Shown here in pieces: positions 4,504 to 53,971 of a stretch of 64,000 nucleotides of DNA. The number at the start of each line of letters is the position of its first letter. Positions within the stretch are counted from its first letter, which is position 1. The notes below the pieces were generated by a model that worked only from the letters and a program-made list of their open reading frames with translations, was not told where the DNA came from and made no database searches. Source of the stretch: Owenweeksia sp. (GTDB lineage Bacteria; Bacteroidota; Bacteroidia; Flavobacteriales; Schleiferiaceae); assembly GCA_965214115.1 (NCBI GenBank), contig CBDCAU010000008.1, positions 156,347 to 220,346 of the forward strand, given 5' to 3'. The position numbers were made by a program, and so were the translations under genes.

Positions 4504-4510
4504 TTTTAGG

Positions 4511-4592
4511 CGCGCAGATTTCGCAAATTCCGCAGATTCTTTAATCTCAAAACGGACTGGTTTTTTATCTGCGAAATCCGCGAAATCTGCGT
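4511..4592. repeat. REP-like inverted-repeat doublet (GCAGATTTCGC...GCGAAATCTGC)
   Basis: Inverted repeats in the intergenic region. Confidence 0.75.
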
Positions 4593-4622
4593 GAGAAAAA
4601 AGCCTGAAATCCGCGCGAAAAA

Positions 4623-5357: not shown

Positions 5358-5417
5358 GTCTTCTCTTTTCAAAATAGAATGTGATGTATGAACCTTTTGC
5401 GCAAAGTGTAGCTAAAG

Positions 5418-5470
5418 CCCCCTTTGCCGTGCATCGTTGCCGATTCGGCACACGGTGGGGGTTTGGGGGC
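5418..5470. repeat. Composite REP-like palindrome, inverted copy of 1866-1920
   Basis: Direct sequence comparison. Confidence 0.8.
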
Positions 5471-5507
5471 TTAATCATTCCGCCCCCTTTTCCGTTGTCT
5501 TATCCTT

Positions 5508-6974
5508 ATGAAAATCCTCCTCACCGGCGCCAACGGCTATATCGGGATGCGGCTCCTCCCAGTGCTCGTGGAGGCCGGCCACGACGTTGTATGCTGCGTC
5601 CGCTCGCAATCACGTTTTCCCGTCAAAAAATCATTGAAAGAGAAAGTCGAGGTTTTTGAAATCGACTTCCTGAAACCGGAGGAAGCCGAAAACCCGCCCA
5701 CCGATTTCGATGCCGCCTTTTATCTGATGCACTCGATGAGCGGCGGCGGCAATTTTGAAGAAAAGGAACAGAAAATGGCCGAAAATTTTGTCGGGTTTTT
5801 AGACAAAACTTCGTGCAGACAATTGGTGTATTTGAGTGGGATTGTCAATACCGACGAGCTTTCACAGCATCTTCGCTCGCGTTTAAAAACCGAAGAGATC
5901 CTCAAAAAAGCAAAGGCGAAACACACCGTTCTCCGCGCGGGAATCATCGTGGGAAGTGGAAGTGCAAGTTTTGAAATCATCCGCGATTTGGTGGAAAAAC
6001 TGCCGGTGATGATTACGCCGAAATGGCTCAATACCCAATGCCAGCCCATCGCCATTCGCAACGTTTTGCATTATCTGCGCGACGTTCTCGGCCACGAAAA
6101 ATGCCTCGATAAAATCTTCGACATCGGCGGGCCAGATGTTTTGACTTACAAAGAAATGCTCCTCCAATTTGCCGAGGTGCGCGGTTTCAAACGCTACATT
6201 TTCACCCTGCCGGTGATGACGCCGCGCCTCTCCAGCTACTGGTTGTTTTTCGTCACCAGCACCAGCTATCGGTTGGCGGTAAACCTCGTGAACAGTATGA
6301 AGGTGGACGTGGTGGCTGAGAAAACCGAAATCTTGGACATCCTCCCGATGGAATTGTTTTCTTATAAAAAAGCGGTGGAATTGGCCTTCCAAAAAATTGA
6401 GCAGAACGCGGTGGTCAGTTCGTGGAAAGACGCGATGAGCGGTAGCAAACTGGGCAGCTTGAGCGAGTTTGTGGAAGTGCCGCAGAACGGTGTTTTTATC
6501 GATAAAAAATCCCGCAAAATCAAAAATGATAAGGAGCAGGTCATTGAAAATATTTTCTCCATCGGCGGGCAGCGTGGCTGGTATTACGGCAGTTTTTTGT
6601 GGAAAATCCGAGGCTTTCTTGACCAAATGGTGGGCGGGCCGGGCCTGCGGCGGGGGCGCACCCACGGCTCGCACATTTTCGTGGGCGATTCGCTGGATTT
6701 TTGGCGCGTCATCGTGGCCGACCGCGAAGAGCCTCGCCTTTTGCTCTACGCCGAAATGCGCCTGCCGGGCGAGGCGTGGCTGGAATTCTGCATCGATGAA
6801 AGCGGCGAAACCCCTATCCTAAAACAGAAAGCGGTATTCCGACCGCGCGGCATTTTAGGGCGATTGTACTGGTGGTCGGTGCTGCCGTTCCATTATTTCG
6901 TTTTCAATGGAATGATTACGAATATCAAGAAATTTCGGCCGGAACGGGCTGGCCGGAGCGTTGCCCACGGTTGA
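5508..6974 (+). CDS. Atypical SDR oxidoreductase with DUF2867 (YbjT-like)
   Basis: TGANGYIG Rossmann motif, GSGSASFE, C-terminal EMRLPGEAWLEF. The stop codon lies inside a REP. Confidence 0.9.
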   Translation: MKILLTGANGYIGMRLLPVLVEAGHDVVCCVRSQSRFPVKKSLKEKVEVFEIDFLKPEEAENPPTDFDAAFYLMHSMSGGGNFEEKEQKMAENFVGFLDKTSCRQLVYLSGIVNTDELSQHLRSRLKTEEILKKAKAKHTVLRAGIIVGSGSASFEIIRDLVEKLPVMITPKWLNTQCQPIAIRNVLHYLRDVLGHEKCLDKIFDIGGPDVLTYKEMLLQFAEVRGFKRYIFTLPVMTPRLSSYWLFFVTSTSYRLAVNLVNSMKVDVVAEKTEILDILPMELFSYKKAVELAFQKIEQNAVVSSWKDAMSGSKLGSLSEFVEVPQNGVFIDKKSRKIKNDKEQVIENIFSIGGQRGWYYGSFLWKIRGFLDQMVGGPGLRRGRTHGSHIFVGDSLDFWRVIVADREEPRLLLYAEMRLPGEAWLEFCIDESGETPILKQKAVFRPRGILGRLYWWSVLPFHYFVFNGMITNIKKFRPERAGRSVAHG

Positions 6975-7078
6975 AACCGTGGGTTGTGGCGGGGTTTTCT
7001 GACCGATGGTTTTTAGTGTCGCCCACGGTTGAACCGTGGTTTGAGACCAGCACCCCAACCGACGGTTTCAACCGTTGG
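6964..7078. repeat. REP cluster (CCCACGGTTGAAACCGTGGG family), 3 units
   Basis: Palindromes at 6964-6983, 7022-7039 and 7055-7078; same family at 9581-9648. Confidence 0.85.
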
Positions 7079-7196
7079 CTCTTTAAAGGCCAAAACCCAA
7101 ACAGACATTAAAAAATAAAAAAATTAAGGTTTATAAAATTTCCATTCTTTTTTTTGAGGTCTGAAATCCATCAAACATCAAAAAATCCGATTTTTA

Positions 7197-8623: not shown

Positions 8624-9580
8624 ATGATCGTCCGCCGGAATTTAGACCCCAAAGTTGTTTTTCTCTATACTTGGAAGCACCTGCTGTACTATCTGCTGTT
8701 GGCGCTGGCGGTTTATTTTATAGATGAGCATTTCAGCAGCGTGCGCGTCCACGTGCCGCCGGTCACCATCGCGGCCTTTAGCACGGCGCTGGCCATTTTT
8801 TTGGGATTCAATAACAACCAAGCCTATGACCGCTGGTGGGAAGCCCGCAAAATTTGGGGCCTGATGGTGAACTACAGCCGAGCGTGGGCGCGGCAGGCTT
8901 CCACTTTTTTGATGACCAAAGATGAGGCCGAACAACCCGAAGTGCGCCGCCTGCAGCAGCGGATGATTTATCGCCATTCCGCCTTCGTGCACGCCCTGCG
9001 GGTGTTTTTGCGAATTGACAATCACTACGATGCCGACCAATATGAATATATGAAACCCAAAAATGCCTACAATGATACCGAGCACTTGTTGACCGAAAAA
9101 GAGTTCCGCGTTTTTTGTCAAAAAGATAATCCGCCCAATTACTTGATTCAACTGCAGGGCGAAGATTTGCGGCGCGCCTACCAGCGCGGCTGGATCAGTG
9201 ATTTCCGCTATGTGCAGATGGACCAGACGCTGGTGGAATTCAACAACATCCAGGGCCGGAGCGAGCGTATCAAAAACACGCCGATGCCGCGGCCCTACAC
9301 CTATTTCTCGCGGATTTTCGTGTTCCTCCACGCCACCCTGCTGCCCTTTGCGTTTGTGGAGGGCCTCGGCCTTTTGATGGTGCCGGTATCGCTCGCCGTC
9401 TCGTTCGTTTTCCTCACCCTCGATTGGATAGGCCAGCGCACGCAAGACCCTTTCGACAAAAAAATCGACGACACGCCGCTGACCTCGCTGAGCGTGACCA
9501 TCGAACGCAACGTAAAGGAACAATGGGGCGACAAGGAACTGCCGGAAAACCCCGCGCCGGTGGAGGGGATCGTGTTTTAG
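8624..9580 (+). CDS. Bestrophin family ion channel (YneE-like)
   Basis: AYDRWWEARKIWG, ERIKNTP, DPF motifs. Confidence 0.9.
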   Translation: MIVRRNLDPKVVFLYTWKHLLYYLLLALAVYFIDEHFSSVRVHVPPVTIAAFSTALAIFLGFNNNQAYDRWWEARKIWGLMVNYSRAWARQASTFLMTKDEAEQPEVRRLQQRMIYRHSAFVHALRVFLRIDNHYDADQYEYMKPKNAYNDTEHLLTEKEFRVFCQKDNPPNYLIQLQGEDLRRAYQRGWISDFRYVQMDQTLVEFNNIQGRSERIKNTPMPRPYTYFSRIFVFLHATLLPFAFVEGLGLLMVPVSLAVSFVFLTLDWIGQRTQDPFDKKIDDTPLTSLSVTIERNVKEQWGDKELPENPAPVEGIVF

Positions 9581-9648
9581 AGATGCCGCAACCCACGGTC
9601 GAAACCGTGGGTTGCGGCATCTCCCGACCGACGGTTTCAACCGTCGGC
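9581..9648. repeat. REP doublet and probable bidirectional terminator
   Basis: 18-bp perfect stem AGATGCCGCAACCCACGG/CCGTGGGTTGCGGCATCT plus a second palindrome, between convergent genes. Confidence 0.85.
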
Positions 9649-13400: not shown

Positions 13401-13936
13401 AGCAACGGAAAGTTATCGAAAACACCATCAAAATCCGCTATCAAATTTTTGAGCCTTTTTTGATAAAAACGGGCGCATCTTTTTTTGATAAAAACAACCT
13501 TTCGGGAAACTTTGCTTCGCGCAATTTTGGTATCGATCAATTTCGTAACGAAAACTCGATTTCCTACCAACCGGGCGAAAAATTGGTACTGACCGCACTC
13601 TATATTTTGGATGAACAAAATAGCAGTGCGGAAGAAAACGAAAACACGCTTTTCGCACAAACGGCGGGCGTGGAAATGAGCTATAATGCGGGGCAAAAAC
13701 TGAGTTTGCAGCTGAACCTCAATTACATCAAAAACGATTTTGAAGGGGCGCAAAATTCGCCGGCCGGCTTTGAAATGCTGCGCGAACTGAAACCCGGAAA
13801 CAACGGCACTTGGGGACTAACGCTGCAAAGGACGTTCAACAAAAATATCTTGGTAAGCCTGAACTACAACGGGCGGACGAGCGAAAACTCGCGGCCCATC
13901 CACAATGGGAACGTGGAAGTGAAGGCGTTTTTTTAA
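10481..13936 (+). CDS. Large conserved Bacteroidota outer-membrane protein of unknown function
   Basis: 1151 aa ORF with signal peptide, GSISRSVSVGNNQD...LNLQLSG motif and terminal beta-strand ending in F. Confidence 0.75.
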   Translation: MAKGRFFFICMLLQSLAFAQSDSTLWSPARSVFVPAQSDSLFLDSLPVLENSISINDSNGNPLPVLFTFYKKPFSHLKFPQKTAQILYVNYQIIDIPLNRIYRNKDTTLILPEIGSAPKNLYETQAAGGAFQPFAGLNSSGSISRSVSVGNNQDAVLNSSLNLQLSGDLGENTQIRASITDNSIPVQTGGYTQQLREFDRVYLELENPDFGLLRAGDYNMTSQQNQFLRFDKRISGAGIFTKINPSASSGQATGGNQIPLQLQGGIARGKFARNRFQGSEGNQGPYKLTGANGERFVIIISGSERVYIDGILMQRGEQNDYVMDYNAGEITFTALQPITKERRIVVEFQYTEQNFLRSVFYGESGFESENWQTSVSFYSEQDAKNQPLLEDLQDSEKELLSQVGDDLNAARVSAIRRSEFSNDLVLYELRDSLGFDSVLVFSLDSNAVLHQAAFTFLGENGGDYVLAQNNANGRVFRWVPPINGIPQGRYAPVKQLVAPNQLQILTARTAGKIAENHAINAELAMSKNDINLFSNLEEENDQGSAGKIQYILDKKLDNSVVNFGVNYEFNQDNFRTIERIRRVEFARDWNLPLNFNGGLQLGGISAGISDEKKSLILESDFLTLDGYDGFKNVVAGKLRDSSNIGFLQASFLTTKDSLGSTEFLRESGEFAHFVTPNFWAGIGSIGEWNQRQARGTDTLRRASYNFLEYRLFTGFGDSSANFTELSFLERWDDTARFGRFVNFSKATTYRVESNYKTKFNSTLNAKINLRNLKILEPEEKEIQRTVTTRFNYLQRFFSNSVVSTTFYEAGAGSEPRRTFSYLEVPAGTGTFTHTDYNGNGIKELDEFEVAPTPDLATFVRIFTPNNEFVRTSLQKFGQTLNLNAPSNWKSAEGIRSGLHRFSLLFNYLIDRKTLLDGTTNRLNPFEEIPDDTLIVALNRNFRSTVFFNRASTLLGADYTYRNTDNRNLLSFGIEQRKVIENTIKIRYQIFEPFLIKTGASFFDKNNLSGNFASRNFGIDQFRNENSISYQPGEKLVLTALYILDEQNSSAEENENTLFAQTAGVEMSYNAGQKLSLQLNLNYIKNDFEGAQNSPAGFEMLRELKPGNNGTWGLTLQRTFNKNILVSLNYNGRTSENSRPIHNGNVEVKAFF

Positions 13937-14074
13937 CCTCACCCCCAGCCCCTCTCCCACGGGAGAGGGGTGACGCAACGGACGGACGCAGTAAAGAAAC
14001 CTCATTAATATTTAATGCGGGATTTTTACGTCCAGCCACCCCCTCCCTGAAGGAGAGGGGGACGGGGGGTGAGG
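13937..14074. repeat. REP doublet (CCTCACCCCCAGCCCCTCTCCC...GGGAGAGGGG family)
   Basis: Two inverted GC-rich hairpin units. Confidence 0.8.
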
Positions 14075-14132
14075 TAATTTCGACCACACTTTCAGGGCGT
14101 GTCACTCGGCAAGAAATTATCAGCAGGATGTT

Positions 14133-32033: not shown

Positions 32034-33371
32034 ATGAATATTTCCGTTTTCTTAATCATCACCGTCTTAGTGGTGCTTTTCGCTTTGTTGGTCATTGGGT
32101 TTGTCCTCTCGCTGCGCTCGGGGAAGGTGCGGCGCGCGGCGGAAACCGAGCGGGCGGATCTGAACGAAATCCTGACCACGGAACGCATTTCCCGCGAAAG
32201 CGCCGAGAAAAATCTGGCGAAAGCCGAAACCGAACTGGAAACAAAACGTGGCGAGGTGGTGGCGCTGTCGCGCGATTTGGCCTCCCGCGAAAGCGACCTG
32301 AAAAATCTAAACGAAAAACTGGCCGAGCAAAAAGGGGAAGTGGAAAAACTGAACGAGAAATTTTCAGTAGAATTCAAAAACTTGGCGAACGAAATTTTGG
32401 AAGAAAAAACCAAAAAATTCACCACCCAAAACAAGGAAAACCTCGACCAAGTGCTGAACCCATTGCGCGATAGGATTTTGGAATTTCAAAAGAAAGTGGA
32501 AGACAATCACACGGCGGGCGAAAAACGCGGCGCGGCGCTGCACCAACAGCTCAATCATCTCAAAGAAATGAACCGCCAAATCACTAAGGAGGCGGAAAGC
32601 CTGACGAAAGCGCTACGCGGCGAAAGCAAGACCCAAGGCGGCTGGGGCGAGATGCAGTTGGAAACCATCCTCGAAAAAGTGGGGCTGCAAAAAGATGTGC
32701 ATTACCAAAAAGAACAGAACCTGAAAACCGAGGAAGGCGGCAACCAGCGGCTGGATTTCATCATCAATCTGCCCGATGGAAAACACTTGATTTTGGATTC
32801 CAAGGTGTCGCTTTCGGCTTATGCCAATTATTTTGATACCGAAGACGAGGCGGAACAGGCGCGCTTTTTAAAACAGCATTTGGCGAGTATGCACGCCCAC
32901 ATCAAAACGCTGAGCGGCAAGAATTACCAAAATTTATATAATATAAATGCGCCGGATTATGTGCTGATGTTCATCGCCAACGAACCCGCGCTGACGATGG
33001 CGCTGAAGGAAGACCCGACGATTTATGAAAAGGCACTCGACCAAAACATCGTGCTGGTTTCCACGACCACCTTACTGGCCACGCTGCGCACCATTTCCTA
33101 CATCTGGAAACAAGACCAGCAAAACAAAAACGCCGATGAAATAGCGCGGCAGGCGGCGGCGCTTTATGATAAGTTCGTGGGTTTTACGGAAGATTTGATC
33201 AAACTGGGAAACCAACTCGGCACGGTGCAAAAAACCTATCAGGATTCAATGAAAAAGCTGAGTTCCGGCCGTGGGAACTTGGTACAAAAAACGGAACAGC
33301 TCCAAAAACTGGGCGCTAATCCCGCCAAACGAATCGACCAAAAATTGTTGGACAGGAGTGAGAAGGAATAG
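32034..33371 (+). CDS. rmuC: DNA recombination protein RmuC
   Basis: N-terminal TM helix, coiled coil, QGGWGEMQLE, IINLPDG..LILDSKVSL, DYVLMFI. Confidence 0.93.
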   Translation: MNISVFLIITVLVVLFALLVIGFVLSLRSGKVRRAAETERADLNEILTTERISRESAEKNLAKAETELETKRGEVVALSRDLASRESDLKNLNEKLAEQKGEVEKLNEKFSVEFKNLANEILEEKTKKFTTQNKENLDQVLNPLRDRILEFQKKVEDNHTAGEKRGAALHQQLNHLKEMNRQITKEAESLTKALRGESKTQGGWGEMQLETILEKVGLQKDVHYQKEQNLKTEEGGNQRLDFIINLPDGKHLILDSKVSLSAYANYFDTEDEAEQARFLKQHLASMHAHIKTLSGKNYQNLYNINAPDYVLMFIANEPALTMALKEDPTIYEKALDQNIVLVSTTTLLATLRTISYIWKQDQQNKNADEIARQAAALYDKFVGFTEDLIKLGNQLGTVQKTYQDSMKKLSSGRGNLVQKTEQLQKLGANPAKRIDQKLLDRSEKE

Positions 33372-33456
33372 CGAATAGGTAATAATGAATTAGTAAAATA
33401 GGCAGGGCGAAAAAGTACTCCGACTACTTATTACCTATTCATTATTACTTATTTTC

Positions 33457-41115: not shown

Positions 41116-41195
41116 AGAAGAGTGTAATTTGTAATTGGGTAATTTATTGTAATTGGTAATTCAGTTGTAATTCGATAGTAATTCATTGTAATTTT

Positions 41196-41352
41196 CCTCC
41201 CCCGGCTCGTGCCTCGCCACCCCCTCAAAGAGGGGGATAGGGGCCGCCACCCCGAACCACGGAACGACTAAACTGGCGGTCTTCCAAAAAGTTGGAGCGT
41301 GCGCTGTCCCCCTCTTTGAGGGGGTGTCTCGGCTCAGCCGAGACGGGGGAGG
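41196..41352. repeat. REP doublet / MITE-like element (CCTCCCCCGG...CCCCTCAAAGAGGGGG family)
   Basis: Terminal inverted repeats flanked by degenerate octamer tracts. Confidence 0.75.
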
Positions 41353-41422
41353 TTTTCACTATTCCCCTAATTAACTAATTGTCCGATTGTCTCATTGGCA
41401 AATTGCCTAATTGTCCCATTGA

Positions 41423-49036: not shown

Positions 49037-49079
49037 TTGAAGATGAGTTGGTATTTTTGTGAACTCATTTTACTATCAA

Positions 49080-50210
49080 ATGATACTTCGGGAACAAATT
49101 GATTTTGTCCGCCAACGGCTTTTCCGAGGCAAGGCATTCATCATTTTCGGGCCACGCCAAGCCGGAAAAACCACTTTTGCTAAGCAACTTTTGGCTACTG
49201 AAGACCGAACCGTTTTTCATCTCAATGGAGATGACAGCGATGCACGGAATCTTCTTGCCCAACCCAATGCAACAATGTTAAGGGCACTGCTGGGCAAAAA
49301 TGAGATTTTCTTTTTGGACGAAGCCCAGCGTGTGCCCGACGCGGGACTTTTGATAAAAATTATAGTTGACCAAATTCCCGAAGTTCAGGTCATTGCCACG
49401 GGCTCCTCTTCTTTTGAATTGGCCAGCCATATCAACGAGCCGCTAACGGGCCGCAAATATGAGATGCAGCTTTTGCCACTTGCCTATCAGGAATTGGTGA
49501 GTCATACCGACCTTCTAACCGAAAATAGATTGTTAGAACAGCGGCTGGTTTTTGGCGCCTATCCAGAAATAGTGATGGATCCCATCAATGCGGAAGAACA
49601 CCTTAATTTATTGGCAAACAGTTATTTATATAAAGATGTCTTTGCATTGGAACAAATTCAAAAACCCAATCTTTTGGAGAAACTGGTGAAGGCGCTCGCC
49701 TTGCAAATCGGTAGCGAGGTGAACATCAACGAATTGAGCCGATTGCTGCGTGCCGACCACAAAACCATCGAAAAATACATACAGCTTTTGGAGTTGGCGT
49801 TCGTGATTTTTCAATTGCCCGCGCTAAACCGAAATGTGCGCACCGAAATCCGCAAAAGCCGCAAAATTTATTTTTTCGACAACGGGATTGTTAACGCCGT
49901 TACCGGAAATTTGAACCCATTGCACAACCGTAAAGACGTGGGCGCGCTTTGGGAAAATTACCTGATGAGCGAGCGCTATAAATATTTGGAATTCAAAAAG
50001 ATACGCGCCAAACAACTGTTTTGGCGCACCACGCAGCAACAGGAAATCGACTACATCGAAGAGACGTTTGACACAATGCTGGCCGCCGAATTCAAATGGA
50101 ATCCGAGCCGCAAAACCAACTTTTCAAAAACTTTTTTGCGCGCTTATCCCGAAGCGGAAACGCTGGTGGTGACGCCGGAAAACCGGCACGTGTTTTTGAC
50201 CGTTTCATAG
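49080..50210 (+). CDS. AAA_14 ATPase with DUF4143
   Basis: GPRQAGKT, FLDEAQ, ATGSSS, LTGR, GAYPE, KIYFFDNG, WENYL, EIDYI..AAEFKW. Confidence 0.9.
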   Translation: MILREQIDFVRQRLFRGKAFIIFGPRQAGKTTFAKQLLATEDRTVFHLNGDDSDARNLLAQPNATMLRALLGKNEIFFLDEAQRVPDAGLLIKIIVDQIPEVQVIATGSSSFELASHINEPLTGRKYEMQLLPLAYQELVSHTDLLTENRLLEQRLVFGAYPEIVMDPINAEEHLNLLANSYLYKDVFALEQIQKPNLLEKLVKALALQIGSEVNINELSRLLRADHKTIEKYIQLLELAFVIFQLPALNRNVRTEIRKSRKIYFFDNGIVNAVTGNLNPLHNRKDVGALWENYLMSERYKYLEFKKIRAKQLFWRTTQQQEIDYIEETFDTMLAAEFKWNPSRKTNFSKTFLRAYPEAETLVVTPENRHVFLTVS

Positions 50211-50441: not shown

Positions 50442-50467
50442 CCGCCCTTTTGCAAAAAGCAAAAAAT

Positions 50468-53400
50468 ATGGCGCGCAACTATCCCGAATTCAAGCAATTA
50501 GACCTTGTGAAAATCCACAACGACATTCTGGATTTTTGGAAGGAAAACGACATTTTTGAGCAAAGCGTTTCCTCCCGCGAGGGGCGCGAAAACTTCGTGT
50601 TTTACGAAGGGCCGCCCTCGGCCAACGGGATGCCGGGCATCCACCACGTGATGGGCCGCGCCATCAAGGATATTTTTTGCCGCTACAAAACATTGGACGG
50701 TTTTCAAGTCCATCGAAAAGCGGGTTGGGACACCCACGGACTGCCCGTGGAGCTTGGCGTGGAGAAGGAATTGGGTATAACAAAAGAGGACATCGGCAGC
50801 AAAATTTCTGTAAAAGAATACAACGAGGTCTGCAAAAAAGCGGTGATGAAATACACCGACGCGTGGAACGACCTGACCGAGAAAATGGGCTATTGGGTGG
50901 ATATGGGCGACCCCTATATCACCTACAAACCCAAGTATATGGAAACGGTGTGGTGGCTTCTCAAACAACTGTGGGACAAGGACTTAATGTATAAAGGCTA
51001 TACAATTCAACCGTATTCGCCGGCCGCCGGCACGGGGCTGAGTTCCCACGAAATCAATATGCCGGGCTGCTACCGCGAGGTGAAGGATACATCAGTAATT
51101 GCGCAGTTTCCGGTGGTGCGGAATGAGAAATTTCAAAAGGTTTTTGGCGAAGCGGTTTCGGTGGAGGATGCGGTGTATTTCCTCGCTTGGACGACCACGC
51201 CTTGGACGTTGCCCAGCAACACCGCGCTGACGGTGGGGAAAAGTATTCCCTATGTTTTAGTGGAAACTTTCAATCAATATACCCATCAAAAACAGAAGGT
51301 AGTTTTAGCCAAAAATTTAGTAGCTAAATATTTCAAAAAAGAGGCGAAAAATGTTTCTTTTTCTGATTATAGAAAGGATGGAAAAAATATTCCTTGGAAG
51401 ATTGTTTGGGAAGGTTTGGGCGAGCGGCTTTTAGATTTGAAATATGAGCAACTTTTGCCGTATGCAAAACCTTACGAAAATCCCGACCAAGCGTTTCGGG
51501 TGATTGCTGGCGATTTTGTGACGACAGAAGACGGAACTGGCATTGTCCACACTGCGCCTACGTTTGGTGCGGATGACGCGAAAGTGGCGAAAGAAAATGG
51601 CGTGCCGCCGATGTTGGTTTTGGATGAAAATGGCAACGCCGTCCCGCTGGTGGATTTGCAGGGGAAATTCCGAAAGGAAATGGGTGAATTCGCTGGAAAA
51701 TTCGTGAAAAACGAATATTATTTGGAAAGCGAAAAACCGGATAAATCAGTTGATGTAGAAATCGCCATTAAATTAAAAGAAGAAAACAAAGCTTTTTTAG
51801 TCGAAAAATACAGCCACAGCTATCCCCATTGTTGGCGCACGGACAAGCCCGTATTATATTATCCGCTGGACAGTTGGTTTGTGAAAGTGACCGCCGAGCG
51901 CGAAAAGCTGGTGGCGCTGAACAAAACCATCAATTGGAAACCCGCCGCCACGGGCGAAAAACGCTTTGGCAACTGGCTGGAAAACGCCAACGACTGGAAC
52001 CTTAGCCGCAGCCGTTCTTGGGGAATCCCGCTGCCGATTTGGAGTACCGAAGACGGCACGGAACGGCAAATCTTTGGCAGCGTGGCCGAGTTGAAAAGAG
52101 CCTGCGACGACGCCGTAGAAGCGGGTTTGATGGATTCCCATCCTTTTGAAAAATTCGAGTTGGACAATCTTTCCGATGAGAATTACGACACCGTGGATTT
52201 GCACCGTCACATTGTAGATGACATCATCCTAAAATCCCCGCAAGGGAAACCGATGAAACGGGAGGCGGATTTGATTGATGTGTGGTTTGATTCGGGGAGT
52301 ATGCCGTATGCGCAGTGGCATTATCCGTTTAGCCCCCTATCCCCCAAAGGGGGGAAATTGGAGCGTGAAAGCGCGCATAATAAAACGTCCAATTCTAACG
52401 TCCGTGTAGCTGAACCCCCCTTTGGGGGGCAGGGGGGCTGGCAAGATTTAGCGAGTGTTTTCCCCGCCAACTTCATCGCCGAAGGCGTGGACCAAACCCG
52501 CGGCTGGTTCTACACGCTCCACACCATCGCTGGATTGGTTTTCGATTCGGTGGCGTATAAGAATGTGATTTCCAACGGATTGGTGCTAGACAAAAACGGC
52601 CAGAAAATGTCGAAGCGCCTCAAAAATGCGGCTGACCCATTTGAGACTTTGGACAAATACGGCGCGGACGCGGTGCGCTGGTATATGATTGCGAATGCGC
52701 AGCCGTGGGACAATCTGAAATTTGATTTCGCGGGCATCGCCGAGGTGCAGCGCAAATTTTTTGGGACGCTATATAATACGTATTCGTTTTTTGCGCTGTA
52801 CGCGAATATCGATAGGTTTGAGTGGGATTCGGCGCGGCTTTCGGAGGTGAAAAACCGGCCGGAAATCGACCGCTGGATTTTGTCGCGGCTGCAAGTTTTG
52901 AAAAAAACGGTGCGCGAAAATTTCGACAATTACGAACCGACTTGGGCGGCGCGCGCCATCCAAAATTTTGTGGATGAGGAGCTAAGTAACTGGTATGTAA
53001 GGCTTTGCCGGAAACGGTTTTGGCGCGGCGAAATGAGCGCCGACAAACGGATGGCCTACGAAACGCTTTACGAATGCCTGTTCACGGTGAGCCAATTGAT
53101 GAGTCCGGTGGCGCCGTTTTTCGCGGATTGGCTGTACCGAAACCTGACGGAACATCTGCCGGAAGGCGAAAAAGAAAGCTCGGTGCATCTGACTTTTTTG
53201 GCGCAAGCCCAAGAAAACCAAATCGATACACATCTGAACGAGCGGATGAAAATGGCGCAGCGGCTCAGTTCGATGGTGCTGTCGTTGCGGCGGAGCGAGT
53301 CCATAAAAGTGCGGCAGCCGCTGCAAAAAATGATGGTGCCGGCGCTGAAACCGGAGGTGGCCGAACTGATAAAAAGCATCGAGGACATCGTGCTGGCGGA

Positions 53401-53971
53401 GGTGAACGTGAAAGAACTGGAAATTTTGCGCGACGTGCAGGGCGTGCTGGTGAAAAAGGCGAAACCGGATTTCAAAAAACTGGGCCCGAAATACGGCAAG
53501 TTGATGAAGCCAATCGCGGGCGCGGTGAAAAATTTTGACCAAGACCAAATCGAAAAACTGGAAGAAAAAGGCGTTTTGGATTTGGAAATCGGCGGGGAGA
53601 AAATCGCGCTGGCGCTGGGCGACGTGGACATCGAAACGGAGGACATCCAAGGTTGGCTGGTGGCCACGGAGGGCGGGCTGACGGTGGCTTTGGACGTCAC
53701 GATTTCGGACGAACTGCGCTACGAGGGCATCGCCCGCGAGCTGGTGAACCGCATCCAAAACCTGCGCAAAGACAGTGGGCTGGAAGTGACCGACCGCATT
53801 TCGCTGCAGATTTTGAAAAACGACGAAATCAGCAAGGCGCTGGCGCAAAACCGCGACTACATTGCCAGTGAAACCTTGGCGAACGAAGTGATTGAAAAAG
53901 AGGAAATGATTGGTGGGTTGGAGTTGGATTTAGGGGAAGTGCAGACGGCAATTGCGTTGGAGAAAGTTTAG
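50468..53971 (+). CDS. ileS: Isoleucine--tRNA ligase, carrying an in-frame palindrome insertion
   Basis: EGPPSANG.PGIHH, GWDTHGLP, WTTTPWT, DWNLSRSR.WG, DVWFDSG, EGVDQTRGWF, KMSKR. Confidence 0.97.
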   Translation: MARNYPEFKQLDLVKIHNDILDFWKENDIFEQSVSSREGRENFVFYEGPPSANGMPGIHHVMGRAIKDIFCRYKTLDGFQVHRKAGWDTHGLPVELGVEKELGITKEDIGSKISVKEYNEVCKKAVMKYTDAWNDLTEKMGYWVDMGDPYITYKPKYMETVWWLLKQLWDKDLMYKGYTIQPYSPAAGTGLSSHEINMPGCYREVKDTSVIAQFPVVRNEKFQKVFGEAVSVEDAVYFLAWTTTPWTLPSNTALTVGKSIPYVLVETFNQYTHQKQKVVLAKNLVAKYFKKEAKNVSFSDYRKDGKNIPWKIVWEGLGERLLDLKYEQLLPYAKPYENPDQAFRVIAGDFVTTEDGTGIVHTAPTFGADDAKVAKENGVPPMLVLDENGNAVPLVDLQGKFRKEMGEFAGKFVKNEYYLESEKPDKSVDVEIAIKLKEENKAFLVEKYSHSYPHCWRTDKPVLYYPLDSWFVKVTAEREKLVALNKTINWKPAATGEKRFGNWLENANDWNLSRSRSWGIPLPIWSTEDGTERQIFGSVAELKRACDDAVEAGLMDSHPFEKFELDNLSDENYDTVDLHRHIVDDIILKSPQGKPMKREADLIDVWFDSGSMPYAQWHYPFSPLSPKGGKLERESAHNKTSNSNVRVAEPPFGGQGGWQDLASVFPANFIAEGVDQTRGWFYTLHTIAGLVFDSVAYKNVISNGLVLDKNGQKMSKRLKNAADPFETLDKYGADAVRWYMIANAQPWDNLKFDFAGIAEVQRKFFGTLYNTYSFFALYANIDRFEWDSARLSEVKNRPEIDRWILSRLQVLKKTVRENFDNYEPTWAARAIQNFVDEELSNWYVRLCRKRFWRGEMSADKRMAYETLYECLFTVSQLMSPVAPFFADWLYRNLTEHLPEGEKESSVHLTFLAQAQENQIDTHLNERMKMAQRLSSMVLSLRRSESIKVRQPLQKMMVPALKPEVAELIKSIEDIVLAEVNVKELEILRDVQGVLVKKAKPDFKKLGPKYGKLMKPIAGAVKNFDQDQIEKLEEKGVLDLEIGGEKIALALGDVDIETEDIQGWLVATEGGLTVALDVTISDELRYEGIARELVNRIQNLRKDSGLEVTDRISLQILKNDEISKALAQNRDYIASETLANEVIEKEEMIGGLELDLGEVQTAIALEKV
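52331..52439. repeat. REP-doublet insertion inside ileS
   Basis: AGCCCCCTATCCCCCAAAGGGGGG ... CCCCCCTTTGGGGGGCAGGGGGGCT imperfect terminal inverted repeats. Confidence 0.85.

Follow-up and report, generated by a model that had tools for sequence, protein, structure and literature searches.

We describe an in-frame palindromic element in ileS, the gene of a type-2 isoleucyl-tRNA synthetase (IleRS), within a 64,000-nt (64-kb) stretch of an Owenweeksia contig, hereafter the window, whose positions are used throughout. The element adds 36 codons to a loop that is short in most orthologues, and in nine close homologues the same loop holds a longer insert in which arms of the same kind flank a DUF559 nuclease domain. 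Our reading is that the window element is probably a nuclease-less 'mini' copy of a mobile cassette of Bacteroidota-wide occurrence, one that would spread as a homing element and would not be spliced out. The features of the locus are as follows.

50450..53971, + strand: ileS, type-2 isoleucyl-tRNA synthetase and host gene; open reading frame (ORF) of 1173 amino acids, assigned by Pfam and homology.
52331..52438, + strand: whole in-frame element; 36 codons, S622-G657 (numbering of the IleRS protein P0001), SPLSPKGG...EPPFGGQGG.
52331..52354, + strand: left arm AGCCCCCTATCCCCCAAAGGGGGG; outer C-run, spacer and inner hairpin CCCCC-AAA-GGGGG; encodes SPLSPKGG.
52355..52414, + strand: core of 60 nt with its own stem (AATTGGAGCG.../...ACGTCCAATT); encodes KLERESAHNKTSNSNVRVAE.
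52415..52439, + strand: right arm CCCCCCTTTGGGGGGCAGGGGGGCT, inverted partner of the left arm; encodes PPFGGQGG.
52439..52459, + strand: linker WQDLASV, 7 codons, standing in place of the native 9-residue ENxxxFxxQ.
52460..52462, + strand: TTC, first host codon after the element (F of FPANF); Y is usual at empty sites, that is, in IleRS alleles without an insert.

The in-frame element of ileS

The ileS ORF opens with TTG at 50450; the ATG at 50468 (MARNYPEF...) is the likelier start and fits both the protein of 1167 amino acids on record and the orthologue consensus, and the product read from it is P0001. The ORF carries the Pfam domains tRNA-synt_1, Anticodon_1 and DUF5915 and is 73-77% identical to IleRS proteins of the Flavobacteriales (Owenweeksia and relatives), the nearest of them at 77%.

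The DNA palindrome proper spans 52331-52439 (AGCCCCC...GGGGGGCT, 108-109 nt). A repeat finder placed its arms at 52333-52354 and 52415-52436 (22 nt, 91% complementary, 60 nt apart), and they can be extended to 24 nt (52331-52354 and 52416-52439). The left arm fits the phylum-wide arm pattern GCCCCC-N2-3-CCCCC-NAA-GGGGG, and each arm contains the mini-hairpin 13-mer CCCCCAAAGGGGG, of which the 64 kb holds only these two occurrences against 0.15 expected from shuffled sequence. As RNA, a 121-nt stretch folds into one long hairpin of -60.4 kcal/mol (z -5.1), a stability reached by none of 200 shuffles; as DNA it folds at -32 kcal/mol (z -4.9). The element reads in a single open frame with ileS, its 36 codons giving SPLSPKGGKLERESAHNKTSNSNVRVAEPPFGGQGG between the junctions F|SPL... 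and ...QGG|WQD, and is followed by WQDLASV and then FPANFIAEGVDQTRGWF. Its 60-nt core contains no separate ORF, and no direct repeat that could be a target-site duplication flanks the window copy. A tblastn search of the window for DUF559 returned no real match; a hit at 6108-6236 on the minus strand (E = 0.008) runs antisense within the 5508-6974 gene and was set aside as spurious.

A sequence-only reading of this DNA had described a GC-rich inverted-repeat doublet inside ileS at 52331-52439, adding about 36 residues in frame after QWHYPF and upstream of KMSKR. The arms, the fold and an independent assembly agree with the doublet, the addition is exactly 36 codons (52331-52438) and KMSKR lies ~55 residues downstream. 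The placement after QWHYPF holds for the element, the seven residues WQDLASV before FPANF having gone unmentioned. The orthologue alignment that this reading had set beforehand as its test contains no segment of equal length: ~95 of the 120 best IleRS homologues have a linker of 9-11 residues, of the form ENxxxFxxQ, between HYPF and FPADF, where the window protein has 43. The ENxxxFxxQ linker is always conserved in empty-site sequences, and solved IleRS structures have 4-9 residues between the same two motifs.

Assembly support for the insert was also forthcoming. In an independent Logan assembly of a public run (X1), a 3503-nt contig of depth ~5 is identical across the insert to window positions 51800-52509, with ileS on both sides, and no insert-less joint occurs among the Logan contigs of that run. 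Other contigs from runs X1 and X2 share the left arm and 10-15 nt with the window before continuing into different flanks, diverging at the left boundary (52331/52332). That the insert is an artefact of assembly at a palindrome is scarcely credible. The contig depth is low and palindromes can confuse assemblers, but a second assembler gave the identical stretch with no alternative joint, the frame is kept through the insert, and inserts of the same kind stand at this site in many unrelated assemblies. From the independent assembly, the open frame and the orthologue linkers, we conclude that the insert is real, in frame and absent from orthologues. We note that high-depth short contigs (up to ~1200) from runs X1 and X2 match the conserved GVDQTRGWF...KMSK region at window positions 52518-52659, one joint among them skipping 140 nt; these are probably synthetase genes of other, more abundant organisms in the metagenome.

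In a structure model of the enzyme (mean pLDDT, the predicted local distance difference test, 74; predicted TM-score 0.59) the insert appears as coil, with pLDDT <50 over residues 608-662, in keeping with the loop placement of the earlier reading. It is predicted to form an unstructured, disordered loop.

DUF559 cassettes at the same IleRS loop

Nine close IleRS homologues of 1277-1394 amino acids (P0002, P0004, P0011, P0012, P0013, P0024, P0026, P0035 and P0056) have DUF559 (PF04480) and MTES_1575 added in their precomputed Pfam lists, with arms and DUF559 in frame. In all nine the additional 153-267 residues fall exactly between HYPF and FPADF and consist of a DUF559 domain flanked by one to three SPLTPxGG...PLGGLGA modules. 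At the DNA level the order is arm, DUF559, arm in locus L001, and two complete 76-nt doublets, DUF559 and a third doublet in locus L002; the three 76-nt arm units of L002 are ~90% alike and form direct repeats on both sides of DUF559. A Psychroflexus locus (L032) matches this arrangement of in-frame arms and DUF559, likewise at this IleRS site. In the 112 kb made up of the window, L001 and L002, arms occur in this 27-nt IleRS loop only. A gene for an AAA_14/DUF4143-type ATPase lies directly upstream of ileS in the window (49059-50210) and has a counterpart in L001 (8745-9872), which indicates that local gene order is conserved between the window and the genome of P0002.

All IleRS-borne DUF559 domains retain the near-invariant nuclease residues of the family despite identities of 48-89%, and the nine cluster apart from MetH-borne and free-standing copies in a neighbour-joining tree. 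The proteins that bear them are not a clade in an IleRS tree built with the insert masked. The nearest empty-site sequence to P0002 is P0003 (92.2%), to P0004 it is P0010 (94.4%) and to P0011 it is P0018 (94.0%), and the nearest other insert-bearer stands at 86.0, 85.8 and 85.8%, respectively.

The sequence that follows the insert is also distinctive. The post-insert linkers of six insert-bearers from different branches read QDLKDAGL, KDLKEAGV, KGLEEAGL, QDVTKSSV and QDITKSSA. WQDLASV of the window resembles these linkers and none of the ~95 empty-site linkers looks like it; from this resemblance to the linkers after DUF559 cassettes in other IleRS alleles, WQDLASV is likely to move together with the element. 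F is the first host residue past the insert in 8 of 10 insert-bearers and is found there in 9 of 50 sequences from the same clade that have empty sites (Fisher p = 3e-4); the window reads FPANF where its sister P0033 reads YPANF.

A patchy presence, a shared site and an accompanying flank are what would be expected if related genomes exchanged an element by recombination at a single site, which is the pattern of homing. We propose that, within this Flavobacteriales group, a cassette came to occupy the IleRS loop HYPF|FPADF and spread, or was exchanged, among close relatives by recombination. The most likely process would be nuclease-driven homing, in which cassette-less alleles are cleaved and repaired from a carrier, a short co-conversion tract bringing along its own linker and F codon. 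After fixation the nuclease would have been lost in the lineage of the window, likeliest by recombination between flanking arm units such as those of L002, and the remainder, arms plus a short core, would be transcribed and translated as a 36-residue disordered loop of an otherwise intact enzyme. The direction of change would accordingly be one of nuclease loss and not that of a precursor awaiting invasion; the reverse order, in which an arms-only element came first and was later invaded through arm homology, is also conceivable.

The pairing of nuclease-bearing and arms-only states is not confined to this loop. A second IleRS site, AQFK|YFLAWTTTPW, holds arms only in a Bergeyella metagenome-assembled genome (MAG; L008, 6259-7998) and arms with DUF559 in a metagenome contig (L181, 757-3357), so that the two-state pattern is repeated at an independent site of the same enzyme.

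Arms and DUF559 across the Bacteroidota

A scan with the arm pattern GCCCCC-N2-3-CCCCC-NAA-GGGGG, applied to one genome per species, gave at least 119 loci. The 80 titles listed among them are all from Bacteroidota except Streptomyces, 'Candidatus Evtepia' and one unnamed bacterium, and among the matches listed arms occur in Flavobacteriales, Cytophagales, Chitinophagales, Saprospiraceae, Bacteroidales and Sphingobacteriales. Twenty-five doublets share a single architecture, (A)A-GCCCCC-NN(N)-CCCCC-RAA-GGGGG, a core of 18-130 nt and a mirror image ending GGGGGC-T(T), with a total length of 62-177 nt; conservation is limited to the arms, the cores differing in length and sequence. No target-site duplication was found at these 25 doublets, whose flanks are typically A(A)|...|T(T) and lengthen the palindrome. 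The arm-plus-core 27-mer of the window had no match in a genome collection of 185,579 species, which lacks the genome of the window itself; a search of called genes on record likewise did not return the exact IleRS protein.

Many of these arms lie inside genes. Among the matches listed, 35 of 147 have a frame open for at least 60 codons on each side, and 19 of 25 scanned arm-bearing ORFs belong to known Pfam families. The hosts include IleRS (twice), MetH, a NadB-type oxidase, UvrA, DnaG-type primases (twice), AspRS, an ABC ATPase, a C39-ABC exporter, a TonB receptor, a type ISP restriction enzyme, a DNA methylase, MeaB, GSCFA, two FG-GAP proteins, PMT_2 and a TMEM260-like protein. In-gene arms encode [S/R/C]P[L/P]xP[K/E]GG on one side, paired with P[F/L]GGxGA or PPSGxxGL opposite. 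One locus (L112, 1-4200) is an open frame of 1400 codons that has no Pfam match and contains at least four complete arm doublets (62-85 nt) in its first 1500 nt.

The partner of the arms is a small nuclease. The DUF559 profile matches the PDB entries 3HRL (3e-32) and 3R3P (1e-8), the latter being the catalytic domain of I-Bth0305I, a homing endonuclease of a group I intron ('mobile intron protein'; PMC3239194), and DUF559, Vsr and I-Bth0305I have been placed in one PD-(D/E)XK clade (PMC3424549). These profile matches mark DUF559 as a PD-(D/E)XK nuclease of the Vsr-like type and a relative of the homing endonuclease I-Bth0305I. In 39 of 76 metagenome loci the DUF559 ORF is spanned by a GC-rich inverted repeat with a score of at least 14, and in 47 by one with a score of at least 12, against 0 of 64 outward-displaced windows of the same loci and 9 of 226 permuted pairs. 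The strict arm regular expression was matched beside metagenome DUF559 genes at 22 of 75 loci; it was replaced by the inverted-repeat score and its two controls because arm families vary. At L127, where the DUF559 gene is free-standing, 10 nt separate the left arm from the ATG and 24 nt separate the stop from the right arm, and at L125 and L130 an arm or doublet lies just downstream of the DUF559 gene.

As at IleRS, the nuclease is often carried in frame. Of 80 metagenome DUF559 copies, 48 lie in a frame open for at least 80 codons on one or both sides, 32 of them on both, and all 20 of the in-frame copies scanned sit within conserved genes: LeuRS (six, once with two DUF559 domains), ValRS/IleRS-type synthetases (three), MetRS, RecG (four), PriA, MetH (three), an SF1 helicase and a DegT aminotransferase. 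Their sites recur, in that the four RecG inserts share one position, most LeuRS inserts share another, and the three MetH inserts are at one position, which is also that of P0130. The in-gene cassettes are all flanked by Pro/Gly/Ser-rich peptides. The LeuRS with two nuclease domains is a single metagenome ORF (L156, 412-3363) that carries them in frame at residues ~400-480 and 766-872. We also note ORFs in which DUF559 stands at the very start and the frame runs on through 160-220 codons of a different protein, such as the end of Polysacc_synt_C (P0123, P0125 and P0135; L132, L133, L136, L152, L154, L158, L167 and L175); either these are host genes split by a cassette or the gene calls begin inside one.

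These observations suggest a form for the full cassette, namely two inverted GC-rich arms, each with a small hairpin, around a DUF559 gene. Inside a gene the cassette would be translated without a break, with stop-free Pro/Gly/Ser linkers (SPLTPxGG ... PxGGxGA) encoded by the C- and G-runs of its arms, and the insert would hang from a tolerant surface loop, either flexible and loop-like or folded on its own into a nuclease domain. An in-gene cassette could survive without splicing because its arms are free of stops in the frames used and encode flexible linkers.

It could be argued that the mature enzyme instead lacks the element, which would be an intron, be spliced out of the protein or be bypassed by ribosomes, and the very stable mRNA hairpin (-60 kcal/mol) would suit such a process. 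Phages are known to show bypassing and to carry unusual insertion elements that do not splice (bioRxiv 10.1101/2022.08.31.505936; PMC11855218). We consider removal highly improbable, as no Rfam family matches the window at the gathering threshold and none reaches E <= 1 in 52150-52650. At 108 nt the element falls short of the length of self-splicing introns. No Hint/intein domain stands in the Pfam lists precomputed for the long alleles, and the junctions lack the Cys/Ser ... His-Asn-Cys/Ser/Thr residues of inteins, the long alleles reading ...GLGA|K.... Moreover, the frame is open in 11 IleRS alleles with inserts of 36-267 residues and in the 20 cassettes scanned elsewhere, and a segment that was removed would not need an open host frame.

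A different possibility is that the host has co-opted the insert, as a peptide loop or mRNA hairpin that serves IleRS, for instance through regulation of translation or mRNA stability or as a new interaction surface. The element is intact in an essential gene, with arms 91% complementary, and the nuclease residues of the long alleles are conserved at ~50% divergence, which indicates selection on at least part of such inserts. Against this, the cores vary freely among copies, empty-site alleles are the rule (~95 of 120), the peptide is predicted to be disordered, and the nearest IleRS is 77% identical, leaving no close relatives of the window version in which conservation could be gauged. On this balance co-option appears improbable.

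The evidence does not all point one way, and several observations weigh against the descent of the window element from a nuclease-bearing cassette. The 64-kb window contains neither a nuclease gene nor a second copy of the exact arm-plus-core. DUF559 stands beside an arm at just 2 of the at least 119 arm loci listed, both inside genes, so that arms-only elements (117) far outnumber nuclease-bearing ones; with DUF559 so seldom beside arms, most of the small elements may move, if they are still mobile, without a nearby nuclease. The IleRS inserts do not share one junction (after E1, after residue 8, with or without an extra linker), and several independent events in a permissive loop would fit this as well as homing does. 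A sequence-unrelated palindrome of ~63 nt (GTCATTCTGAACTTGATTCAGAATC...CCTGAATCAAGTTCAGGTTGAC, encoding VCHSELDSESKPENLNQVQVD) occupies this HYPF|FPADF loop, in frame, in IleRS P0105 from a Flavobacterium-like MAG (L124, 3885-3955), P0115 being alike; a second repeat family therefore uses this loop, and loop tolerance plays a part too. The closest pair of full and empty alleles at the DNA level (L001 and L003) is 82% identical overall and 73-78% identical within 30-60 nt of the site, too diverged to resolve a co-conversion tract. The DUF559 trees are neighbour-joining trees without support values, built from 120-residue domains that are 48-89% identical, and the structure model is mediocre, its low-confidence stretch (608-679) taking in flanking host residues as well.

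One explanation that would account for much of this is that the element is an ordinary small transposable element of the miniature inverted-repeat kind (MITE), which transposed itself into a permissive IleRS loop and is historically unconnected with the DUF559 cassettes of that loop, the site being shared only because the loop is among the few insert-tolerant places in an essential gene. The unrelated Flavobacterium palindrome, the varying junctions, the 117 arms-only loci, the predicted disorder of the loop and the metagenome contigs with the left arm and 10-15 nt in common before different flanks would all suit it. We regard this account as unlikely, although it deserves serious consideration. 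The arms are confined to the one 27-nt loop in 112 kb, and since arms are so rare, repeated random hits in that loop would not be expected; the non-native 3' linker (QDL...V) and the F residue are common to the window and the DUF559-bearing alleles; the IleRS-borne DUF559 domains group together in the tree; and a second IleRS site shows the same two states, arms alone and arms with DUF559.

Descent from a homing cassette by loss of its nuclease is the reading that we prefer, and it allows a wider and more tentative proposal. DUF559 with its hairpin-coded Pro/Gly arms may constitute an unrecognised class of mobile element, a 'spliceless intein', which homes into fixed sites of conserved genes (IleRS, LeuRS, ValRS, MetRS, RecG, PriA and MetH), is never removed, is expressed as an extra domain and decays to arms-only miniatures that seed peptide loops across Bacteroidota proteomes and possibly serve as landing pads for re-invasion. 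If this is true, many Bacteroidota aminoacyl-tRNA synthetases and RecG, PriA and MetH proteins are chimeras with a nuclease domain, with consequences for annotation, for intein-like tools and for the entry of new loops and domains into conserved proteins. It would offer a way for a homing element to inhabit essential genes with neither intron nor intein, by being translatable and flexible instead of removable.

Known systems and other repeats of the window

Taken by itself, the ileS element is one more in-frame palindrome in an essential gene, a curiosity known since the Rickettsia palindromic elements (RPEs). RPEs (Ogata et al.) and intragenic repetitive extragenic palindromes (REPs) of the GTAG/CGTC type are in-frame palindromes whose hosts include uvrA and uvrB (Di Nocera et al., 2013, PMC3733652; PMC10969869). 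The Bacteroidota elements resemble them in being short palindromes (~100-150 nt) that lie in frame in many unrelated and often essential genes and add 20-50 residues, and tolerance in loops or linkers is thought to apply to both. They probably differ from RPEs (RPE-1 to RPE-10, of Rickettsia) in sequence family, the host of the ileS element being a Flavobacteriales-like bacterium and the arm pattern being nearly limited to Bacteroidota; the likeness lies in function. They further differ in their C5/G5 arms with a nested hairpin and in their Pro/Gly linkers. They differ also in that arms of the ileS type bracket a DUF559 nuclease gene which is itself carried in frame, no such partner of RPEs being described in these sources (PMC3733652, PMC10969869). 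The sequence-only reading had likened the element to RPEs, as a selfish palindrome tolerated in a loop of an essential enzyme. The repetition of the family in Bacteroidota, often in frame, the predicted coil and the second palindrome in the same loop are in line with that comparison, so that its observation is confirmed and its interpretation supported in essentials; its phrase 'de novo protein sequence in progress' is speculation. That the element is probably the nuclease-less form of a DUF559 cassette is beyond what the window sequence alone could reveal.

The earlier label 'REP-like' suits the doublet shape. As in the REP doublets that form hairpins (REPINs) and are associated with REP-associated tyrosine transposases (RAYTs) (PMC6006769, PMC3733652), hairpin units are paired in inverted orientation around a short spacer, there is no obvious target-site duplication, and non-autonomous copies coexist with one associated gene between the same hairpins. 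REPs of subclass 2.4, from Cyanobacteria and Bacteroidetes, are reported inside tnpA-REP genes without a frame break (PMC6006769). In contrast to REPs and REPINs, the ileS element has no GTAG/CGTC tag at the foot of the hairpin, the arms beginning (A)AGCCCCC and lacking GT[AG]G/C[TC]AC; the associated gene encodes a PD-(D/E)XK Vsr-like nuclease and not an HUH Y1 transposase; and copy density is low. The window contains no RAYT, as judged by the absence of an ORF with an HuH...Y motif from any frame of the 64 kb. For want of the GTAG/CGTC tag, and with a gene other than a RAYT found between such arms, we do not class the element as a REP.

There is also a likeness to homing endonucleases. The nuclease domain is homologous to the Vsr-like EDxHD homing endonucleases (I-Bth0305I, PMC3239194; 'fractured genes', PMC2677866), and the cassettes likewise occupy fixed sites in conserved genes of replication, repair and translation (aminoacyl-tRNA synthetases, RecG, PriA and MetH) and are sporadic among close relatives, as at IleRS, with recurring sites also in RecG, MetH, LeuRS and ValRS-type genes. 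The window copy encodes no nuclease and same-site alleles of relatives do, and such full and nuclease-less forms at one site recall mini-inteins that have lost their nuclease. Homing endonuclease genes differ from the cassettes in that here there is no intein or intron splicing element, and the insert would stay in the protein between hairpin-coded flexible linkers. A parallel is the ShiLan insertion in DNA methylases of actinophages, which is actively homing (PMC11855218): it is neither intron nor intein, leaves the host frame open and is predicted to loop out. It is unlike the cassettes in having an HNH nuclease in another frame, a phage host and no described hairpin arms, where the cassettes have a nuclease in the host frame and miniature derivatives.

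With bacterial MITEs such as Correia/NEMIS, ERIC and Nezha (PMC10969869, PMC3184786, PMC2759123) the element shares its small size (under ~300 nt), terminal inverted repeats, lack of a transposase, many copies of its family across the phylum and occasional intragenic position with an open frame. It encodes no mobilising enzyme and has longer relatives with the same ends (L127, L001); the window holds one copy, and the family is abundant in Bacteroidota. It thus has most of the features of a MITE in the broad sense; it is unlike MITEs in that there is no target-site duplication and no parent insertion sequence of DDE type was found, the presumed parent carrying only a small nuclease.

What appears new, as far as we found, is the tie between such a palindrome and an in-frame spliceless nuclease cassette at recurring sites of conserved genes; a literature search of incomplete coverage found no paper tying DUF559 to such arms or to in-frame insertion. 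The link between arms and DUF559 provides a testable answer to the question of what moves in-frame palindromes and why they land where they do.

The ileS element gives the only arm-type peptide within a long frame of the window. Other repeats of the window had been taken for the same general type, at 1866, 5418, 13937 and 41196. This holds for the last two, which are doublets, and not for the first two, which are solo arms. The doublets are as follows.

13936..14075, strand not assigned: intergenic doublet of a related arm family (ACCTCACCCCCAGCCCCTCTCCCACGGGAGAGGGG ... CCCCTCCCTGAAGGAGAGGGGGACGGGGGGTGAGGT), beginning at the stop codon of the 10481-13936 gene.
41196..41355, strand not assigned: intergenic doublet of another related arm family (CCTCCCCC...CCCCCTCAAAGAGGGGG ... 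CCCCCTCTTTGAGGGGG...GGGGGAGG), from repeat comparison.

Both have the architecture of the ileS element and a different sequence. Arms like those of the first flank DUF559 genes in a metagenome locus (L134), and arms like those of the second flank DUF559 in two further loci (L132 and L136). A 60-nt unit occurs at 1864-1923 and again, in the opposite orientation, at 5414-5474; it resembles a single arm AAGCCCCC-NNN-CCCCC ... AAAGGGGG, with its inner loop expanded by a 30-nt hairpin (ACCGTGTGCCG.ATCGGCAACGATGCACGGC).

The window also contains repeats of other kinds. A further palindrome family is represented by CCCACGGTTGAAACCGTGGG-type hairpins at 6964, 7023 and 9628 (6963-7079 and 9580-9647); the first of these stretches overlaps the end of the 5508-6974 gene, and a perfect 20+20 nt palindrome occupies 9580-9623. 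Imperfect inverted repeats of 34-44 nt, rich in GCGGAT/ATCTGCG, lie at 2822-2927 and 4504-4600 and may be another repeat family. The stretch directly upstream of the doublet at 41196 (41120-41195) is made up of short, AT-rich motifs in tandem, GTAATTG/GTAATTC, with a period of ~11 nt, and similar inverted repeats of TAATAA type are found at 33363-33453.

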